Assembly (NCBI GenBank): GCA_965228895.1
Contig: OZ245842.1
Coordinates: forward strand, 800,001 to 864,000
DNA length: 64,000 nt
From: Alphaproteobacteria bacterium
GTDB lineage: Bacteria > Pseudomonadota > Alphaproteobacteria > SP197
Direction of reading: 5' to 3'
Of this stretch, positions 28,807-38,152 are shown in pieces. Numbering within the stretch: position 1 is the first letter of the stretch; each line of letters starts with the position of its first letter. The translations under genes and the position numbers were made by a program. The notes beneath the pieces were generated by a model. The model made no database searches. It was not told the DNA's origin and worked only from the letters and a program-made list of their open reading frames with translations.

Positions 28807-30036
28807 TTAGCCGCCGTCTGAAGGCGGCGCGAAGACGTCGACCGGGTTGGGAATGCCCTTCAAGACGTGGCTTCCCAGATCTTCCCATGGCACGTCCAAG
28901 ACCCCGGCGAATTCGGCGCTTGCCAAGAGCGGCCGGTCGAGTGTCTTGGTCAGGGCTTCGATGCGTGCGACCTGATTGGCCGCCGGTCCGACGACCGTGA
29001 ACTGAAGGCGTTGCGGCACGCCGATATTGCCATAGGTCAGATCGCCGATATGAAGCGCCAGGCCGCAGGTCAGGCGGCTTTCGCCGGCTTCGTGACGGAC
29101 GACGTTGATCTCGTCCATGCGTTCGCCAGCCTCCTTGGCGGCGGCCAGCGCCTTGGTCGCGGCAGCCTTGTCGCCGGCTTCGGCGGTCGGGAAGATGGCA
29201 AGGACGGCGTCGCCGATCAGCAGCAGGACCTGTCCGCCATGATCCAGCACGGCGCCCGCCGTGCACTCGAAGTAGCTGTTGAGTGCGGCCAGATAATCGG
29301 CCGGTGACAGCAGCTCGGCCAGGCGTGTCGAGTTTCTGAGATCCGAATACCAGATGACCGCGTGGATCGACTCGCCGTCGCCGCGCTTGATGCGGCCGTC
29401 CAAAACGCGGCGGCCCGGATCGGGGCCCAGATAGGTGGTGACGATGTTCTGGGTTACCTCGGTCCTGATCCTGACCTTGCAGGCGACGGCGAGCCGCTTC
29501 TGGATGCGCCGAAGCGAGCGGATGTCGGTTTCGCTGAAGCCGCCCGGCCGGTCGGTGGTCCAGGAGACGAAGATGCCGTCGCCGCTGGCCTCCATGGTCG
29601 AGGAGGGGCCGAACGGCACATTGCCGGCCAGATAGTCGGTGGCCCCTTGTTCGGTCAGATCCTCGAGCACGGGAAAGTCGAGCAGGGTGTCATTGCCTTC
29701 GAGCTTGCGGCGCAGATACGGCACGCCGCTATCGAGCATGTGAAAGAAGGGACTCTTGCGGAACACCTCGTTGCCGACCTGGCCGTGTGGCATTTCGTAC
29801 GTGCCCATGCCATGGCCGCGATGCCAGGTCAGCCATATCGCGCCAAACAGCGGGTGTAGCGTGCGATAGCTCACCATGGCGCGCGACAGCGGCACGCCGG
29901 CCGCGTGCAGGCGCTGGCAACAGCCCTTGACCAGTTCGGTCATGGTCGTGTCGGCCAGGGCCTCATCCATCAGCCAGTCGGCCACGACGTCGATAAAGGC
30001 GAGGTCGAGGCCCGGTTCATCCAGGGGTTTTGACAT
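28807..30036 (-). CDS. Class III adenylate/guanylate cyclase with N-terminal GAF-like region
   Basis: IWYSDLRNST, IGDAVLA, GNIG..RLQFTVVGPAANQVARIE; start uncertain (30036 or 30054). Confidence 0.9.
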   Translation of the reverse strand: MSKPLDEPGLDLAFIDVVADWLMDEALADTTMTELVKGCCQRLHAAGVPLSRAMVSYRTLHPLFGAIWLTWHRGHGMGTYEMPHGQVGNEVFRKSPFFHMLDSGVPYLRRKLEGNDTLLDFPVLEDLTEQGATDYLAGNVPFGPSSTMEASGDGIFVSWTTDRPGGFSETDIRSLRRIQKRLAVACKVRIRTEVTQNIVTTYLGPDPGRRVLDGRIKRGDGESIHAVIWYSDLRNSTRLAELLSPADYLAALNSYFECTAGAVLDHGGQVLLLIGDAVLAIFPTAEAGDKAAATKALAAAKEAGERMDEINVVRHEAGESRLTCGLALHIGDLTYGNIGVPQRLQFTVVGPAANQVARIEALTKTLDRPLLASAEFAGVLDVPWEDLGSHVLKGIPNPVDVFAPPSDGG

Positions 30037-30107
30037 GGCTGAGATATAGACCATTAAGCGCGCGATACCAGTCAGACTTGGTTGAACCAGGATCGCGTCA
30101 GCAGCTC

Positions 30108-30140
30108 TTGACATATTTTGATATTTCCATAATTATCAAA
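30108..30140 (+). promoter_or_regulatory. arsR promoter with putative ArsR operator
   Basis: TTGACA at 30108-13; AT-rich inverted repeat TTTGATA(30117-23)/TATCAAA(30134-40) ends 2 nt before the ATG; no Shine-Dalgarno, so possibly leaderless. Confidence 0.6.
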
Positions 30141-31622: not shown

Positions 31623-32300
31623 ATGACATTTGATTTGGCGCGCCGTCTGGCGGCGGAGGCCCTGGGCACGGCGTTTTTGCTGGCGACCGTGGTCGGCTCC
31701 GGCATCATGGCCGAGTCGCTGGCCGGCGGTAACGTGGCGCTGGCGTTGCTCGGCAACACGATCCCGACCGGCGCCATCCTGATCGTGCTGATCATCATGT
31801 TCGGGCCGATCTCCGGCGCCCATTTCAACCCGGCGGTGACGCTCGCCTTCGCGCTCAAACGCCAGATCAGCCTGCGCGACGGCGGCCTCTACGTCGTCGT
31901 CCAGATCATCGGCGGCCTGATTGGCGTCATCGCCGCCCACATCATGTTCGACGTCGCCATGATCCAGGAATCGGTCAAGGCGCGCGCCGGGCCCGCCCAA
32001 TGGTTCGCCGAGATCGTCGCGACCTTCGGCCTCGTCTCAACCATTCTGATGACGCTGCGCTGGCGCCCGGATGCCGTGCCCTATGCGGTCGGCCTCTTCA
32101 TCACCGCGGCCTACTGGTTCACGGCCTCGACTTCGTTCGCCAACCCGGCGGTCACCATCGCGCGCTCCTTCACCGACAGCTTCAGCGGCATCGCGCCCGA
32201 CCACGTGCCCGCCTTCGTCATCTCCCAGTGCATCGGCGCGGCCATCGCCGTTGCGCTCGCCGCCTGGCTGCTACGCCCGGCGCGGGAGGAGGGTGAATAG
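31623..32300 (+). CDS. aqpS: MIP-family aquaglyceroporin, AqpS-like arsenite channel
   Basis: GAHFNPAVT and SFANPAVT NPA motifs; located inside an ars cluster. Confidence 0.85.
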   Translation: MTFDLARRLAAEALGTAFLLATVVGSGIMAESLAGGNVALALLGNTIPTGAILIVLIIMFGPISGAHFNPAVTLAFALKRQISLRDGGLYVVVQIIGGLIGVIAAHIMFDVAMIQESVKARAGPAQWFAEIVATFGLVSTILMTLRWRPDAVPYAVGLFITAAYWFTASTSFANPAVTIARSFTDSFSGIAPDHVPAFVISQCIGAAIAVALAAWLLRPAREEGE

Positions 32301-32313
32301 TGTGCCGATTGTT

Positions 32314-33321
32314 CTACTGAGGACAGCCCAGAGCGCGCGCTTCGGTAAGAAGGTCCTCTCTCTTGTAGTAGACTTGGTGATCGTAAGCCTCACCATTCCA
32401 ACGCAGAAGCATTTTGCTGCTGCATAGACTGACGTAGCCATCCACGGTCTCATTGATTACATGAAGGCTACTGCCTGGCATAAGGTAGGCCTCCTCCTCT
32501 CCGTCCGCATCCAAAATCGGATCGAGAAAGCTCAGTTCCCCGATCTTGCGCCAAGCCGGTGGCTCGCCGTCCTCCGGGGGCTCCACTTCCAGAATGGCTC
32601 CACGACAAGCAAAGCTGTCGCAGATCGGCAAGGAGATGATGTAGATGAATACCTCGTCACGGCCATCGCCGTTGACATCATAGGTTCCGACGCGAATGTC
32701 ACTCAGCACCGTATCGAAAGGGACGATGTACGTGTCGTATTCCCAGCGAAAATACTCCGTCCACTCGGCGCCATTAAAACGGCAACCCCAAAAAGGCCAA
32801 GGTATGTTTGTCATGGTGACGGACTGTTCGGCGCTGGTGATGAACCGCTCGTAGAGGGATGTCGTAAATGTCGTCCGTGTCTTTTCAACAAGACTCCAAT
32901 CACACGGCGCGTCCATACTTCGATCTTTGACCACCGGCGAGAAGACGAAGAGGTCGCACAAATCGCCGTCGCATGTCGTGTCGTGATCGACAAGAACCAG
33001 CAAATCCTTGATCTCGTCACCATCAACGTCGGCAAATCCGGCAAAGAAGCTCTTTGCCGTCAAGTCTGGGTTGTTAAAGTGGCGCCCTTCCGGTGACGTT
33101 TGTAGAAACGCCTCGACCAGCGAGAAGTGCTCGCCGAGAAAGGGCACGATCAATATTTCATGGGCCTGATTGTCGTCATCGGCGGCCACGGGATGAGCCA
33201 CCGGAATCAAGGCCGACAAGATCACAAAAGCGACCACACGACGAATGGCCGAACCCCGCCCGACTACGACATCAGTGCCGCCAACGCTGGCCCAAGCGAA
33301 AGAAGATCTTAGTTCGGGCAA
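32314..33321 (-). CDS. Secreted DxDGDG/Cys-pair repeat protein, array copy 5 (putative immunity protein)
   Basis: Hydrophobic leader (VAHPVAA-D); FADVDGD..DH..C....CD, GTYDVNGDGRDEVFIY..C....C.GAILE, WNGEAY, LGCPQ; true start probably downstream of 33321. Confidence 0.8.
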   Translation of the reverse strand: MPELRSSFAWASVGGTDVVVGRGSAIRRVVAFVILSALIPVAHPVAADDDNQAHEILIVPFLGEHFSLVEAFLQTSPEGRHFNNPDLTAKSFFAGFADVDGDEIKDLLVLVDHDTTCDGDLCDLFVFSPVVKDRSMDAPCDWSLVEKTRTTFTTSLYERFITSAEQSVTMTNIPWPFWGCRFNGAEWTEYFRWEYDTYIVPFDTVLSDIRVGTYDVNGDGRDEVFIYIISLPICDSFACRGAILEVEPPEDGEPPAWRKIGELSFLDPILDADGEEEAYLMPGSSLHVINETVDGYVSLCSSKMLLRWNGEAYDHQVYYKREDLLTEARALGCPQ

Positions 33322-34229
33322 CCGAGCTGCTCCGCCTCGTAATCGGGCACATAGAAGCGGATGTTATACGTCTCGCCGTTCCACCGCAGATAAGAGCCGC
33401 GGCTGCAGAGGCTGGCGTACCCATCTACCGTCTCGTCAATGACCAGCATGGTACGTCCCGGCCAAACATACGCCTCGTTCTCCAGAACGATGTGCATGGC
33501 CGGATCGAGGGAGTTGAGCTCGCCGATCCAGCGCCACGCGGGTTTCGATCCGTCTTCCGACGGCGACAGCTCCAGAATGGCGCCGCCACACTCATCCCGT
33601 CCGCAGATCGGTGGCGACACGACATAGATGAATATCTCGTCTTGGCCGTCGCCGTTAAGGTCGTACGTGCCGATGCGGACGTGGCTGAGCAAGATTTCGT
33701 CCGATTCGAATGTCGTATCGTAAAGTCGCTCGAAGTAGTTGCTCCAGTCCTCGCCCTCAATCTTGGCGGCCAACGCTGAAGGCCAACCCTTCAGCGTAAC
33801 CGTCTGCCCATTTGCGACGACGAAGCGCTCGTAGAGCGATCGTTTGACATCGCTCCGTGATGAGCTGACAAACAACCAATTGCACGGACTGTTGACGGTC
33901 GGGTTTTGCACGTCGGCCGAGAAGACAAAGACGTCACAGCGCTGATCCGTACAGACTGCCTCGTGATCAACCAGAAACACCAGGTTGTCGAGACCATCGC
34001 CGTCGACGTCGCCAAACCCGGCGTAGATGTCGCGTGAGGTCAGGGCGTCGGTTTCGAAGTACTGGCCGAACCACGCTGTCGCCATGTACTCCTCAACAAG
34101 CCAAAGGTACTCGCCGATGTCCGGCATCAGAAGCACCTCCTTGGGAAGCCTGTCGCCTCGCGCATTTGTGGTCTGGGCGAACGCAATCGAGAGGGCGATG
34201 ACGGCAAGCGACGATCTGAGCACGTTCAC
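33309..34229 (-). CDS. Secreted DxDGDG/Cys-pair repeat protein, array copy 4 (putative immunity protein)
   Basis: Signal peptide; FGDVDGDG, GTYDLNGDGQDEIFIY, CGRDECGGAILE, WNGETY, LGCPN. Confidence 0.85.
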   Translation of the reverse strand: MNVLRSSLAVIALSIAFAQTTNARGDRLPKEVLLMPDIGEYLWLVEEYMATAWFGQYFETDALTSRDIYAGFGDVDGDGLDNLVFLVDHEAVCTDQRCDVFVFSADVQNPTVNSPCNWLFVSSSRSDVKRSLYERFVVANGQTVTLKGWPSALAAKIEGEDWSNYFERLYDTTFESDEILLSHVRIGTYDLNGDGQDEIFIYVVSPPICGRDECGGAILELSPSEDGSKPAWRWIGELNSLDPAMHIVLENEAYVWPGRTMLVIDETVDGYASLCSRGSYLRWNGETYNIRFYVPDYEAEQLGCPN

Positions 34230-34292
34230 TCTGCCGTCTCCGTCTGGTTTGGTGGTGCCATGTCATCCGTTGCGTAGGGGCAAGCACAAGAG

Positions 34293-35276
34293 CTAGGGCA
34301 GGGCACAGCCATGATCCGAGAGGTCATAGGTCTCGCCGTTCCAGCTCAAGTGAAATTGCCGCGTGCACAGGCTAGGGTAACCATCGATCACTTTGTTCAG
34401 CACCTTGATGCGGCGCGCTGGATGAGACGAGATGTCGTCGCCGATAATAAGGTTGTCGGCGACGTAAAGGCCGAGCAGGTCGCCGATCCAGCGCCAGCCG
34501 GGTCTCCCGCCTTCCTCGACGGGCAACAGCTCCAGGATCGCGCCGCCGCACTCGTCGAACCCGCACATGGAAGGCGACACCGCATAAATGAAAACTTCGT
34601 CGCGGCCGTCGCCGTTGAGGTCGTAGGTGCCGACGCGAATGTCGCTCAGGCGTATCTCGTCACGCTCGACGGGCGTATCGTAGATCGCCGCGAAGTACTC
34701 TTTCCAGCGCTGCCCATCGAACCGGCCGTCAAAGGCGCCGATCGACAGGTGATGGTAGGGCTGGGTTATGTTGGTCAGGACGACCGTGTGTTCGGCGGTT
34801 TCCACGAACCGCTCAAACATCGATCGTTTGATCGGTGTCCGGGTCCGTTCGGCAGGCAGCCAGTTGCACGGGGCGGCCAGGCTCTGCCTCTGCCCATCGA
34901 CCTTGAAGGTGAAGACGTCGCACATGTCCTCGTCACATGCGATGGGGTGATCGACGGCGATCAGCAACTCGTCGACGCCGTCGCCGTCAAGGTCTGCGAA
35001 GCCGCCAAAGAAGTCCACTTCGATCAACGCACCGGTAGCGAACTCGTCACCGTAGGACGATGTCGGCATGTACTCTTCGACAAGCCAAAGATGCTCGCCG
35101 ATGTCTGGGGTCAGGTAGATGTAGTCGGCCGCGTTCAGATCTCGAGCAAGACCAAGAAGAGCCCATGTGCCGATCATCGCTGCCAGGCTGTGCCTTGCGG
35201 CCTGCCCCAATCGTTCGATGTTACGGCAGTGTCGGCGCCAAGGGGGTCCAGGCGCGTGTTGCTCTACGTGCGGCAT
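34293..35276 (-). CDS. Secreted DxDGDG/Cys-pair repeat protein, array copy 3 (putative immunity protein)
   Basis: PDIGEHLWLVEEY, FADLDGDGVDE, GTYDLNGDGRDEVFIY, CGFDECGGAILE, WNGETYD; start uncertain. Confidence 0.82.
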   Translation of the reverse strand: MPHVEQHAPGPPWRRHCRNIERLGQAARHSLAAMIGTWALLGLARDLNAADYIYLTPDIGEHLWLVEEYMPTSSYGDEFATGALIEVDFFGGFADLDGDGVDELLIAVDHPIACDEDMCDVFTFKVDGQRQSLAAPCNWLPAERTRTPIKRSMFERFVETAEHTVVLTNITQPYHHLSIGAFDGRFDGQRWKEYFAAIYDTPVERDEIRLSDIRVGTYDLNGDGRDEVFIYAVSPSMCGFDECGGAILELLPVEEGGRPGWRWIGDLLGLYVADNLIIGDDISSHPARRIKVLNKVIDGYPSLCTRQFHLSWNGETYDLSDHGCALP

Positions 35277-35281
35277 GGAGC

Positions 35282-35755
35282 CTACTCCGGGTCAGGCAGG
35301 ACGTTCTTGTACTTAAAATGAAAGTAATCGGGCCATTTGCGGCGATGCAGCGTGCACGCCATGTCCTCTTGCGGCGTCCCCAAGTGCTCATAGGGCAAGC
35401 GTTCAAGCCGAACGGTTTGCCCGCCGATGGTTACGGAGTTTTCGTCGAACGTCTGTCTGAACGGCCTGCGTTGCTCGTCGTAGAGCCGCCAGTCACAGGG
35501 ATAGTCGATATGTCGGTTCTCGACGACCAGCTCAAACAAGAAGACATCGCAGACGTCTCCATCACAAATCTCGTCGTGATCAAGCAGAATCACAAGATCG
35601 TCGCGTCCATCTTCGTTCGCGTCGACGAAGCCCCCATAAAACTCGAAACCGTCGGGAACGAGAAAGAAGCTCAAAGTGGTTGCCTCTCCACCGTGTACCG
35701 GTATGCCCGCGAGCAGCAGGCTCGCGGTCGCTAGGCGTTGCAGGTGACGGATCAT
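35282..35755 (-). CDS. Truncated array copy 2 (N-terminal module only; possible pseudogene)
   Basis: Signal peptide, FVDANEDGRDDL..DHDEICDGDVCDVF, PCDW; stops where the second module starts in the paralogues. Confidence 0.7.
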   Translation of the reverse strand: MIRHLQRLATASLLLAGIPVHGGEATTLSFFLVPDGFEFYGGFVDANEDGRDDLVILLDHDEICDGDVCDVFLFELVVENRHIDYPCDWRLYDEQRRPFRQTFDENSVTIGGQTVRLERLPYEHLGTPQEDMACTLHRRKWPDYFHFKYKNVLPDPE

Positions 35756-35794
35756 ATCAGCAAGCTTGGGTCATTGAGTGGCGGAGTCCACGTA

Positions 35795-35839
35795 TTAGCT
35801 CCGCAAGCCCGGGTCGTAGGTCTCGCCGTTCCAGCGCAT
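35795..35839 (-). pseudogene. Remnant C-terminus of a deleted array copy
   Basis: Reads MRWNGETYDPGLRS*, matching the WNGE(T/A/N)Y C-terminal motif of the intact copies. Confidence 0.7.
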
Positions 35840-35942
35840 ATGTGGGCTGGGAAGCGCAGCGATTTTCGACAACGGCACATGGCTTCTTCTTCAACGCCAA
35901 TCGTGCTCGGCTACACGTTGCCGAGCCCACGGCGGATCATTG

Positions 35943-36893
35943 TCAATCATGAGAGTACACGTCGGCGAACGACAAGAACGGACACCCTAAGAGTTTCGCA
36001 TCTTCCTCGCGAACGTGCTCGACGGCATAATTCTCGCCGTTCCAACGCATGATGTTTGTTGCGGCGCACATTGTGACATGTCCGTCGATTGTCTCTTCTG
36101 TGGCAACCAGTAACCTGGCGGGATAGGTCTCCGACAGATCATCGAAAACAAACCTCAAGTTCGGCACGAGGCGCGGCAGTTGGCCAATCGGTCGCCATGT
36201 CGGCAAGGATCCGTCATCGCTGGCGCGTACCTCCAAGATCGCACCGCCGCAATCACCGCGGTGGCAGGTGTCGGGCGAGTCGACATAGACGAAGACCTCC
36301 TCACTGCCGTCGCCGTTAACGTCGAATGCCCCGACACGCACGTCACGCAGGTCGATACGGCCACCGGCAGCGGGTCTTCCGTAAACCTGTTCGACATATG
36401 CGAGTTTGCCGCCGTCGCCTTCCGTCCAAGCCGGAAGGTCGGGCTTGCGCAGTAGAAGACGGTAGACTTTGCCGTCGACAAAGGCGAAACGCTCGAACAT
36501 CGCACGTTCAATGGGAACGCGTAGGCGTTCGACGAACATCCAATCGGTCCGGTTGTCGGCGGGAGTGTCCGTCTCGTCTGAAGCGAAGACGAAGAGGTCG
36601 CAATGGTCGCCATCGCACGCGGCCTCGTGATCGACGACCCAGATCAGGTCTTCTGTGCCGTCCTCACCGAAATCGGCGAACGCCCCGAAGATGTCCGCCC
36701 CCGTCACCGCACCGGTCTTATAGTTCCCGGAGAATCGCGATGACCGCAGGTAGTCGTCCACCAGCAGGTAATGATCGCCTATATACGGCAGCAGGTTGAT
36801 CTCTTGCGGCAGATTGTCGCTATGCGCAGTTGGCATCCGGACGGTCGCCGCCAGGAAGACAAGTGCCAGGCAGACAAGCGTACGGCTGATCAT
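35943..36893 (-). CDS. Secreted DxDGDG/Cys-pair repeat protein, array copy 1 (putative cognate immunity protein)
   Basis: Signal peptide; FADFGEDG, GAFDVNGDGSEEVFVY, CHRGDCGGAILE, WNGENY, LGCP; ATGA overlap with the upstream gene. Confidence 0.85.
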   Translation of the reverse strand: MISRTLVCLALVFLAATVRMPTAHSDNLPQEINLLPYIGDHYLLVDDYLRSSRFSGNYKTGAVTGADIFGAFADFGEDGTEDLIWVVDHEAACDGDHCDLFVFASDETDTPADNRTDWMFVERLRVPIERAMFERFAFVDGKVYRLLLRKPDLPAWTEGDGGKLAYVEQVYGRPAAGGRIDLRDVRVGAFDVNGDGSEEVFVYVDSPDTCHRGDCGGAILEVRASDDGSLPTWRPIGQLPRLVPNLRFVFDDLSETYPARLLVATEETIDGHVTMCAATNIMRWNGENYAVEHVREEDAKLLGCPFLSFADVYSHD

Positions 36894-37870
36894 TCAGATG
36901 GTTCCGTCTCGTTGAGGGCCGGCACGTCATCGCTGGCATAGAGGGGAATGTTCTCGAATCCGATTAGCCGCTCTTCGACTTGTTCAAAAGCCTCTTTCTT
37001 TGTCCGGTCACCTGGAATGTCGTCAATGGGGAATGTCTCTGGGTCAGAAACCCATTCGTCGGCCTCAAGATGCTCGAAGTACTGCTTGACCCGTCCTTGA
37101 CCTTCGCGATGTGCTGCTGCGAGCAGTCCGGCCTCGGTCACTTCGAACGTAACGTCTCCTGCTTCGATCTCTTGTCCGACATATCGCGTCAATCCGTCCC
37201 CTTCAACGTAACCCCACATCTTTGTCAGATATGCCGCGAAGGCGAGGTTCTGAAGTTCGGGGTCTTGGAGAAACTCGTCGCCATCAGGGAAGGGGTGGCC
37301 GTGCCACTGCTCGTCGGCGGTCATGAGCCCGATGTCGAACAACGATCTCGGTAGAAGTTGATATCGTCCTGCGGCGCGTGACGAAGGATTCACCAAGTGC
37401 CATCTGTCGAACGACTTTTCGAAGATGTCGATGGTATCAGCGAACTCGCGCGAAACCGGGAAGAGTTCGTCGGCGCTCCAAATCTCGTTGATCTGCAGTT
37501 TCTGCGGTGTCGGCTTCGTTTGAGGAATGGGTGGTTCTATGTCGGTAGCCGCCTGCTCCGGCTTTCTTGCCGGAATCGGCGGTGTCGCCGCCGCATCGGC
37601 ATCCGCCCTCGCCGCGCGCCGCGTCGTCGCATCCGAGGTCGGAAAGATCCGCCGCGCCTGTCTGGCGAGCGGCGTTTCGCTGTCCGACGCGGCCTCGCGC
37701 TTCAGTTCGTCGGCGAAGGCGAACGCGATGTGTTCGCGCGATCCCATCGGGAACGGGTTGGCCTCGCCGCTGGCGACCATCCGGGTGATGGCGCCGGCGT
37801 CGGCGGCGATGGGGTTACGCGTGGTCTCGGTTTTGCGGTGTTGGCGTCGTGATGTCCGGCGTCGATTCAT
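36890..37870 (-). CDS. Lysozyme-like (lytic transglycosylase/muramidase fold) protein, putative toxin
   Basis: FEKS (candidate catalytic Glu), VNPSSRAAGRYQL, EFLQDPELQ, TEAGLLAAAH.EG.G; Pro-rich linker; no signal peptide. Confidence 0.72.
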   Translation of the reverse strand: MNRRRTSRRQHRKTETTRNPIAADAGAITRMVASGEANPFPMGSREHIAFAFADELKREAASDSETPLARQARRIFPTSDATTRRAARADADAAATPPIPARKPEQAATDIEPPIPQTKPTPQKLQINEIWSADELFPVSREFADTIDIFEKSFDRWHLVNPSSRAAGRYQLLPRSLFDIGLMTADEQWHGHPFPDGDEFLQDPELQNLAFAAYLTKMWGYVEGDGLTRYVGQEIEAGDVTFEVTEAGLLAAAHREGQGRVKQYFEHLEADEWVSDPETFPIDDIPGDRTKKEAFEQVEERLIGFENIPLYASDDVPALNETEPSE

Positions 37871-37916
37871 GATCGTGGGAACTCCCAGCTAAGGTTGGTT
37901 CCACCTCCCGTCCGTG

Positions 37917-37946
37917 AAACGTAGCACGAACAAACTGCGCAACCAA
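37917..37946 (-). promoter_or_regulatory. Putative sigma70 promoter of the toxin cassette with degenerate LexA-like box
   Basis: Minus strand TTGGTT, 17-nt spacer, (GC)TACGTT; GTTC-N7-GTTT overlaps the -10. Confidence 0.35.
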
Positions 37947-38152
37947 GGGTTTAATGTCTTGCCTTGAATTCGCCTGAATTCAGAGTTCGAGCGGCAACAC
38001 CCGCGGGCGCTGCGCTTGGGCCCGGTCAGCTATGCTGCAGTGCAAGAATCCCCTTGCGAATCGGCATGGGTGCTGGTTGTTTAGCGCCGACAGCCGCAGC
38101 TTCCCCAATTCAGCGTTGCGGGCCCCTTGAGGGGACCCGGAGGAGACCACCC

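Follow-up and report, generated by a model that had tools for sequence, protein, structure and literature searches.

Among the cargo of type VI and type IV secretion systems (T6SS and T4SS), toxins that degrade peptidoglycan and are paired with periplasmic immunity proteins are well documented, and they are also known in one bacteriocin, pesticin. Here we analysed a stretch of 64,000 nucleotides (nt) from the genome of an alphaproteobacterium of the GTDB lineage SP197 (assembly GCA_965228895.1, contig OZ245842.1, positions 800,001 to 864,000; hereafter the window, whose own numbering is used throughout). The element under study is a unit of six consecutive open frames on the minus strand (32314-37870), in which the gene of a leaderless candidate toxin of 326 amino acids (aa) is followed by a tandem series of secreted paralogues. 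With a probability of about 65%, we read this locus as a polymorphic toxin-immunity cassette acting on the cell wall, i.e., a cassette of a known general kind that is built from two uncatalogued families.

A similar layout has been described for X-Tfe XAC2609 and X-Tfi XAC2610 of Xanthomonas citri, a bicistronic pair of leaderless hydrolase and exported inhibitor. According to that study, X-Tfi has the beta-propeller-like topology of PliI-Ah and Tsi1 and is predicted to insert a loop into the active site, PliI, Tsi1 and X-Tfi being loop-inserting inhibitors of peptidoglycan hydrolases with a common topology, and the effector reaches the periplasm of its producer without an obvious signal (PMC10933484). 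As a further likeness, some relatives of the cassette toxin carry PG_binding_1. In contrast to the Xanthomonas pair, no VirB4 was found in the window genome or in five other carriers, and arrays and tail swapping are prominent in the cassette; three profile searches of the PDB (E≤10) did not retrieve the solved X-Tfi chain. PliI itself (PF16743) resembles the secreted paralogues in being exported, in the common stretch FETGA..RD...aDxnxDGxxELiv and in its setting with a glycan-cleaving enzyme. However, PliI is a single module of ~120 residues directed against foreign (animal) lysozymes and lacks a paired toxin gene, whereas the full cassette copies are two-module, Cys-rich and arrayed and, going by alignment register only, have a disulfide-stapled loop in place of SGSGxY.

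The toxin gene recalls pesticin and its immunity protein Pim from Yersinia pestis. Pesticin is described as leaderless; an N-terminal part for uptake and a flexible segment precede its C-terminal domain, which is lysozyme-like and is active in the periplasm. Its partner is a periplasmic immunity protein with specificity for the activity domain, and pesticin has to unfold for import, a step that engineered disulfides block (PMC3390615). The cassette toxin is free of Cys, has a Pro-rich linker and comes without an injection system, a likeness of overall logic only. It differs from pesticin in that it has no Pfam match and no recognisable receptor-binding domain within its 326 aa, and in that its locus is chromosomal and includes an array. 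For such arrays there is a precedent in the T6SS orphan immunity genes of Vibrio cholerae, where, in the published account, added effector-immunity pairs replace the effector and keep the immunity gene, giving mosaic clusters (PMC5361080). Strings of non-identical immunity paralogues have also been reported, in another article, for toxins of type VII secretion systems (PMC9484751). The nested gene orders of the three same-genus strains described below fit the V. cholerae displacement model; whereas the arrays of V. cholerae lie downstream of secretion-system structural genes, the cassette stands alone between core metabolic and arsenic-resistance-type genes.

The evidence for such displacement comes from strains of the same genus, i.e., the window and two further genomes (G001 and G002) with the unit at the same site, and from two loci added by a metagenome scan, including contig L109. 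While aldehyde dehydrogenase, malate dehydrogenase, aquaporin and ArsC, all encoded on the flanks, show 90-96% protein identity, the toxin is only 57-62% identical. In a sliding comparison of the window with G001 and G002, DNA identity stays at 85-100% between the intergenic region and ~37600 (codon ~90) and is 40-65% past that point; within the toxin gene, it breaks from 85-87% (37650-37591) to 60-62% (37620-37579). At the protein level this corresponds to 83-86% identity in the N-terminal ~95 residues vs 41-57% in the C-terminal domain. Between the toxins of G002 and L109, the C-terminal domain is 63% and the N-terminal part 51% identical, a mismatch indicating that the two parts of the toxin have different histories.

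The genes next to the toxin change along with its tail. In the window, the toxin is followed by copy 1, a remnant, a short form and copies 3, 4 and 5. In G001, a new copy stands behind the toxin, and an orthologue of copy 1 (89% identity), the short form and copies 3, 4 and 5 follow. G002 has the short form directly after the toxin, its start overlapping the toxin stop as ATGA, and then copy 3, and in L109 a short form (42-44% identical) follows the toxin and precedes a full copy. Orthologues of copy 3 in two strains are 91-93% identical and that of copy 5 in G001 is 78-79% identical; the copies of the window are mutually 35-49% identical. At 8 of the 12 junctions examined, the downstream start overlaps the toxin stop, and in the window the ATGA at 36890-36893 joins the toxin stop and the start of copy 1. 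Judged by these gene orders, the variable toxin tail and the first downstream gene travel together, and the older partners stay behind.

For every copy, the short form among them, the ratio of nonsynonymous to synonymous substitution rates (dN/dS) lies at 0.16-0.41, vs 0.03-0.14 for the flanks (short form, 0.17-0.41 in three strains; copy 3, 0.27-0.40; copy 4, 0.16; copy 5, 0.22). The copies are less constrained than the flanking genes, but they are under purifying selection and not decaying. The short form, which had been called a half copy in the first-pass annotation made from the letters of the window alone, is not a decayed fragment: it is under purifying selection, ATGA-coupled to the toxin in G002 and beside the toxin in L109, and was probably paired with a toxin subtype whose displacement left it an orphan. 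Of three genomes from a sister genus, one has an intact toxin, the second (G003) a frameshifted one and the third (G007) one with an internal deletion, while the paralogue is intact in all three. The frameshift in G003 (locus L015) lies just after ...AYAFTEQL and could be an assembly error; in G007 (locus L016) the toxin gene is reduced to its start and the last ~65 codons. Orphan toxin tails were not seen.

Toxin and paralogues also occur together beyond these strains. The toxin family was found in 6 of 61 related genomes and the paralogue family in the same six, always on the contig of the toxin. Relatives of copy 4 numbered 15, on contigs with lengths matching those that bear toxin relatives, and close toxin relatives numbered 12 in a collection of 5.8 billion proteins. 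The C-terminal domain was present in 16 of 401 alphaproteobacterial genomes and, at E≤1e-15, in 2 of 401 genomes of a phylum-wide sample. We surveyed 14 distant loci outside the window's own family (2,082 open reading frames (ORFs), 186.6 kb). A hidden Markov model (HMM) of the window paralogues matched 12 ORFs in nine of them, all at most 1.6 kb from the ORF with the toxin domain, and an HMM of the single module added a tenth locus, with arrays of 4, 3 and 2 copies. The paralogue relatives thus stand beside the toxin domain at 10 of 14 distant loci, an association on which the first-pass annotation had staked its interpretation. Each of these distant relatives consists of one module (~170-190 aa in length) behind a leader that, as judged by eye, is of the Sec or lipoprotein type, and the neighbouring genes are unrelated housekeeping genes. 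Two loci of one genome, G080 (L050 and L057), encode toxins with near-identical N-terminal parts of ~220 residues (the contigs end inside) and different C-terminal domains, followed by four and three single-module secreted copies, which differ between the two loci. In G080, then, tails have been swapped and arrays built up independently. We found no description of the toxin/paralogue pair in the open-access literature (supplements not covered).

These patterns bear on a different reading, in which the leading gene encodes a self-directed autolysin for regulated lysis, vesicle release or wall remodelling, and the paralogues only limit self-damage. Such a function would agree with a leaderless protein, with a genome devoid of a delivery system and five other carriers devoid of TssC and VirB4, and with distant loci that sit among housekeeping genes. 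There is also a precedent, since X-Tfe XAC2609 is described as entering the periplasm of its producer without its secretion system, with the immunity protein giving protection, so that immunity can serve self-intoxication alone (PMC10933484). Yet an autolysin gives no reason for an enzyme domain that is swapped between strains at a sharp break, nor for partners of vanished toxins being kept under purifying selection; in G003 and G007 it is the toxin that decays while the inhibitor persists, and the pair is rare and patchy (6/61 relatives; 16/401 in the class). We therefore regard the autolysin as unlikely and return to the toxin-immunity cassette in examining its two protein families.

All four full copies in the window possess N-terminal hydrophobic segments (Kyte-Doolittle scores of 1.7-2.8; residues 30-41 in copy 5), and the leader of the short form is weaker, judged by eye; leaders were called from hydrophobicity and inspection. 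Each full copy has 7-8 Cys residues and the short form four, and the copies carry two CxxxxC pairs as well as two loops of the DxDGDG/DxNGDG type. Leaders, Cys pairs and DxDGDG loops had already been recognized in the first-pass annotation, which had also proposed a comparison with FG-GAP proteins and PliI. Searches against Pfam gave FG-GAP-type matches only, copy 3 exceeding the cut-off (23.8 vs 22.1 bits) and the other copies staying below it, and a profile of the single module matched FG-GAP propellers in the PDB (CRTAC1, E 3.7e-7). With only one or two FG-GAP loops per protein, the copies are not ordinary seven-bladed propellers (PF01839/PF13517). The Pfam model of PliI matched none of the window's own copies; one distant relative of the paralogues matched it below threshold (E 0.01, 16 bits vs a cut-off of 27).

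PliI sequences were also collected from genomes (4/401), one of which matches the solved PliI-Ah (3OD9/4PJ2, E 3.2e-7). Aligned with three PliI sequences by hhalign, the paralogue alignment scored 30.4 (P 9.4e-4); cross-controls reached 11-14 and the highest of 60 block shuffles 19.4, although shuffling in blocks of five columns breaks the calcium-loop motif, so that the shuffles set the real score in too favourable a light. Against one PliI homologue, the paralogues were aligned with a probability of 67.7% (E 4.9e-5) over 31 columns, partly made up of the generic FG-GAP calcium loop; the aligned stretch reads FETGALTxRD...ADvDgDGxdeLl in the paralogues and FETGAIFSRDG...ADINNDGAKELIV in PliI. 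These alignments point to a likely kinship of the paralogues with PliI. H89, C93 and C98 are invariant in the paralogues, whereas the four residues between C93 and C98 are the most variable of the region, with an entropy in this first CxxxxC loop of 1.68-3.04 vs a mean of 1.59. In the register of the alignment, the SGSGxY loop of PliI would correspond to DH-xxx-C-xxxx-C of the paralogues. This match and the hypervariability of the loop are the basis for our guess that the paralogues act by loop insertion.

The toxin itself matched neither Pfam nor NCBIfam at E≤1, in agreement with the first-pass annotation, which had recognized no named family for either partner. Its C-terminal domain has many relatives: a profile search of 1.84 billion representatives (50% clustering) recovered 1,220 proteins at E≤0.001. 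Among 150 listed relatives, all but ~10 share only the C-terminal ~170 residues of the toxin; the profile matches at positions 144-317, and the domain forms the C-terminal end of proteins of 170-724 aa. Across 104 sequences, E151, G168, Y170, Q171, W189, F200, Q207, G248, A251, A252, H254, R255, G257, E299, R301, L302 and F305 are near-invariant. An extra conserved C-terminal part, WxSD...ETRLRxF, ends in a tail (ETRLRxF) that is near-invariant in the 104 relatives as well. Neither Pfam, NCBIfam, PHROG nor the PDB provided a sequence match for the domain, and PDB sequence searches with the toxin and with alignments A4, A3 and A7 gave chance-level matches only.

Clues to an enzymatic fold came from motif order. 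The toxin carries FEKS, AAGRYQL, FLQDPELQ and TEAGLLAAAH, with E-K-S in place of the E-S found in the wider family. The order and spacing of a catalytic Glu (ES in the wider family), G-x-x-Q and A-x-x-x-G resemble SLT/GH23 enzymes. In an hhalign comparison with 28 SLT domains taken from related genomes, ES/ES, GRYQ/GLMQ and AAHRxG/AAYNAG were paired in register over 102 columns (score 22.5, P 0.008, probability 5%), but block shuffles scored 15.2 ± 2.7 and two of 60 reached the real score (11.8 for the reversed alignment), so that we consider this alignment suggestive only. SLT (PF01464) did not match the window toxin at E≤1 or any of the 104 relatives at E≤0.1; two weak matches went to the Transglycosylase-like Pfam family, and in one neighbouring Atlas cluster 34% of the members contain SLT. 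As a yardstick, we aligned SLT with Phage_lysozyme, two families that belong to one Pfam clan, and obtained a score of 22.0 over only 13 columns; at such a distance hhalign is nearly blind.

Two other candidates were rejected. The first-pass annotation had taken AGRYQ as the signature of lambda-R-like enzymes of the lysozyme superfamily. Lambda R itself does carry GAGRYQ; beyond this motif the kinship was not supported (hhalign, 11 columns, probability 1.6%), and the SLT/GH23-like order fits better, if weakly. Phage_lysozyme (PF00959) gave no Pfam match at E≤1 and, with 28 domains, a score of 18.3 over 21 columns with the motifs out of register; G[RK]YQ occurs in none of these 28 domains. On the basis of these motifs, we read the C-terminal domain as lysozyme-like with an SLT-type motif order, and place it in no family.

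Of 10 long relatives, six carry PG_binding_1, as do 7 of the 104 aligned relatives, a hint of a link to peptidoglycan. In three proteins (P0041, P0046 and P0148) an N-terminal PG_binding_1 is followed by the motif GRNGDT.LAHI.P.EA.LL..ITDGGS.NP.TGL.EF and by long low-complexity linkers; taken by itself, this motif has matches in two records of uncultured phages (52.7% and 62.5% identity, 8% of the query). The window genome contains a second, distant relative of the domain (E 1.6e-10), a frame of 747 aa (G000:C1:4227936-4230176, minus strand; 7936-10176 of L059) in which the domain is N-terminal and is followed by four repeats of ~100 residues split by GDPGT runs. The frame lacks a leader and a paralogue-like gene beside it, and Pfam gave no match at E≤1e-5; its product looks like a repeat-rich secreted protein.

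Relatives of the domain are also found in phages. Two match a PHROG whose annotation is baseplate hub and tail lysozyme. In phages themselves, the domain occurs within a protein annotated in this way, and an N4-like virion RNA polymerase has it at the N-terminus. The latter case is Pseudoalteromonas phage pYD6-A (N4-like), in which the relative lies at the very N-terminus of the annotated virion RNA polymerase (5917-6345 of L098). In N4-like phages, the virion RNA polymerase is injected into the host; the arrangement in pYD6-A would place a wall-cutting module on a host-injected protein. In tblastn searches against phage records, relative P0053 hit seven records, and the C-terminal domain of the window toxin had no match.

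From these phage relatives one might read the locus as an anti-phage shield, in which the paralogues inhibit wall-cutting enzymes of virions and the leading gene is a phage lysin that was captured and acts in regulation or as a decoy. The presence of the domain in virion proteins and the partly viral nature of the nearest Atlas clusters would suit this, as would diversified inhibitor arrays in an arms race with phages. However, the first inhibitor is coupled to a chromosomal enzyme gene and changes with its variable domain, which argues for a resident target rather than a phage one; moreover, none of the six proteins matched the PADLOC models, no phage genes flank the cassette, and, as stated, the window's own domain retrieved no phage record. 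We consider a shield against phages very improbable.

For a toxin-immunity cassette, the route of the toxin is the main difficulty. The toxin has no hydrophobic leader (best 12-residue Kyte-Doolittle mean of 1.10 within the first 70 residues), its N-terminal part has no Pfam domain, and no known trafficking domain was detected in the 10 long relatives. Its N-terminal block is conserved across two genera. In a word-based search, the N-terminal region gave five matches, all within the toxin family, and it occurs once per genome in all five genomes searched; being never joined to other toxin domains, it is unlike a shared trafficking domain, and the idea of a trafficking domain common to other toxins was dropped. 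The absence of secretion-system genes, noted for the window in the first-pass annotation, extends to the whole genome, where TssC, Hcp, VirB4 and a phage-type sheath (Phage_sheath_1) were not found, and five other carriers (97-100% complete) had neither TssC (0/5) nor VirB4 (0/5). Secretion apparatus genes were not seen beside any locus inspected, and the genome contains two secretins. Given the genome-wide absence of T6SS and T4SS markers, the analogies with such systems describe logic and not route. Our best guess, drawn from the analogy with bacteriocins, is that the toxin would be released and taken up through a receptor in the manner of pesticin or colicin M; the alternative is an uncharacterised export path. 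The AITxMVA stretch near the N-terminus as a TonB box is only a guess.

A variant of this explanation, differing in route only, would make the toxin an effector of an unrecognised secretion system (type I or novel), with the signal in the N-terminal 95 residues or in the ETRLRxF tail. Conservation of the N-terminal block across two genera, the near-invariant tail in 104 relatives, the two secretins and the repeat-rich build of the distant homologue in the same genome, which is typical of type I substrates, are in line with it. But the tail is more simply explained as part of the enzyme fold, and the inspected loci have no apparatus genes beside them (no search for type I components was made). 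We hold this variant to be distinctly unlikely.

Taken as a toxin-immunity cassette, the locus would work as follows; here we infer enzymatic activity, inhibition by binding, a periplasmic location and the killing of other cells. The exchangeable C-terminal domain of the toxin would most likely cleave the glycan strands of peptidoglycan, with E151 as the probable catalytic acid. The downstream genes would encode Sec-exported, disulfide-rich periplasmic proteins with one or two FG-GAP/PliI-like calcium-loop modules, and the gene coupled to the toxin stop, here copy 1, would be the cognate inhibitor. This inhibitor may resemble PliI, Tsi1 and X-Tfi in its action and block the active-site cleft by an exposed loop, and the hypervariable loop held between H89, C93 and C98 is the candidate for the blocking element. 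Recombination within the conserved 5' portion of the toxin gene would bring in new pairs of toxin tail and inhibitor; an incoming pair would displace the old tail and leave the old inhibitor, building up the array of short form and copies 3, 4 and 5, which may protect against relatives that still carry older toxins. The roles that the first-pass annotation gave to the toxin, to copy 1 as cognate inhibitor and to the later copies as orphan immunity genes are supported by comparative genomics, namely the break, the partner order, the co-occurrence and recurrence of the pair, and the PliI-like similarity. A further-reaching proposal, which we regard as possible yet doubtful, is that the cassette represents an undescribed class of diffusible, pesticin-like bacteriocins that are imported by means of the N-terminal 95 residues and the Pro-rich linker without an injection machine, or leave by unknown export; that PliI-like proteins are ancestral to both anti-lysozyme defence and toxin immunity; and that the disulfide-stapled loop is the specificity element.

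Several points weigh against this interpretation. T6SS, T4SS and sheath genes were not found in the genome, which leaves a leaderless toxin no evident way into a periplasm, be it that of the producer or of a competitor. Fusions of the N-terminal region to other toxin domains were not detected, in a search that, being word-based, is insensitive. The C-terminal domain is without a sequence match in the curated collections named above, and its SLT link is weak, considering a P of 0.008 and a score that two of 60 shuffles reached. On the side of the partners, the copies escape the PliI Pfam model, the link to PliI is short and partly generic, and its shuffle control is lenient. Finally, the number of independent cases in which toxin subtype and partner co-vary is small, with two of them concerning the short form.

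The features of the cassette are listed in Table 1. Strand, frames, leaderless toxin, four intact and diverged paralogues and remnant were all located where the first-pass annotation had placed them.

Table 1. Features of the candidate toxin-immunity cassette (coordinates in the window)
Feature	Position	Strand	Description
Candidate toxin gene	36890-37870	(-)	326 aa, 0 Cys, leaderless; N-terminal region, Pro-rich linker and C-terminal domain
Toxin N-terminal ~95 residues	37586-37870	(-)	Arg-rich start, then AITxMVAxGxANPFPxGSREHIAF block; candidate export/import module
Toxin Pro-rich linker	37469-37585	(-)	TPPIPARKPEQ...PPIPQTKPTPQK; inter-strain recombination break at 5' edge (alignment, sliding DNA identity)
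Toxin C-terminal ~190-residue domain	36893-37468	(-)	Lysozyme-like candidate; conservation across 104 sequences
Copy 1	35943-36893	(-)	316 aa, two-module secreted paralogue; candidate cognate inhibitor of the resident toxin
Remnant, 3' end of a further paralogue	35795-35842	(-)	...MRWNGETYDPGLRS*, inside the 187-nt gap 35756-35942
Short form ("half copy")	35282-35755	(-)	157 aa, leader and first module only; intact
Copy 3	34293-35276	(-)	327 aa, two-module paralogue; candidate orphan immunity gene
Copy 4	33309-34229	(-)	306 aa, two-module paralogue; candidate orphan immunity gene
Copy 5	32314-33321	(-)	Up to 335 aa, two-module paralogue; candidate orphan immunity gene

The listed TTG start of copy 5 overlaps copy 4, and its true start is probably further inside. 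DNA repeat families run across the copies with a start-to-start spacing of 960-983 nt, and a stretch of the remnant (35812-35838) shares 93% DNA identity with one of copy 3 (34322-34348). Further members of the paralogue family were not found elsewhere in the 5.53-Mb single-contig genome. In a close strain (X2), reconstructed from public sequencing runs (four runs checked), the whole locus lies on one contig and differs by 213 letters over ~6 kb. One flank holds genes for an ArsR-type regulator, a glyoxalase-fold protein, an ArsC-type low-molecular-weight phosphatase and an MIP channel, and the other those for aldehyde dehydrogenase, malate dehydrogenase and succinyl-CoA ligase. Beside the ArsR-type gene lies a frame of 435 aa (28807-30114, minus strand) without a Pfam match at E≤1e-5. 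The G+C content is 57-61% over the cassette (32000-38000) vs 62-66% in the surrounding core genes, a dip that is compatible with acquisition from elsewhere. Long antisense frames of up to 336 aa (34311-35321, 32461-33096 and 33093-33779, plus strand) we take to be the usual by-product of coding sequence with high G+C content and not genes. A scan for promoters and terminators was uninformative, with no promoters and two terminator-like sites vs 5.0 expected, and Rfam had no match within the window.

Beyond the single locus, these results bring to light an enzyme domain that has no curated family despite ~1,220 relatives at 50% clustering, and an immunity family that may tie toxin immunity to PliI inhibitors by sequence and not by fold alone. 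The three strains provide a natural series in which effector displacement can be followed step by step. As the known delivery machinery is absent from the six carrier genomes checked, the route of a leaderless wall-degrading toxin becomes testable. Finally, the array would constitute a ready panel of natural enzyme-inhibitor pairs, suited to studying how specificity may be set within a small disulfide-constrained loop.

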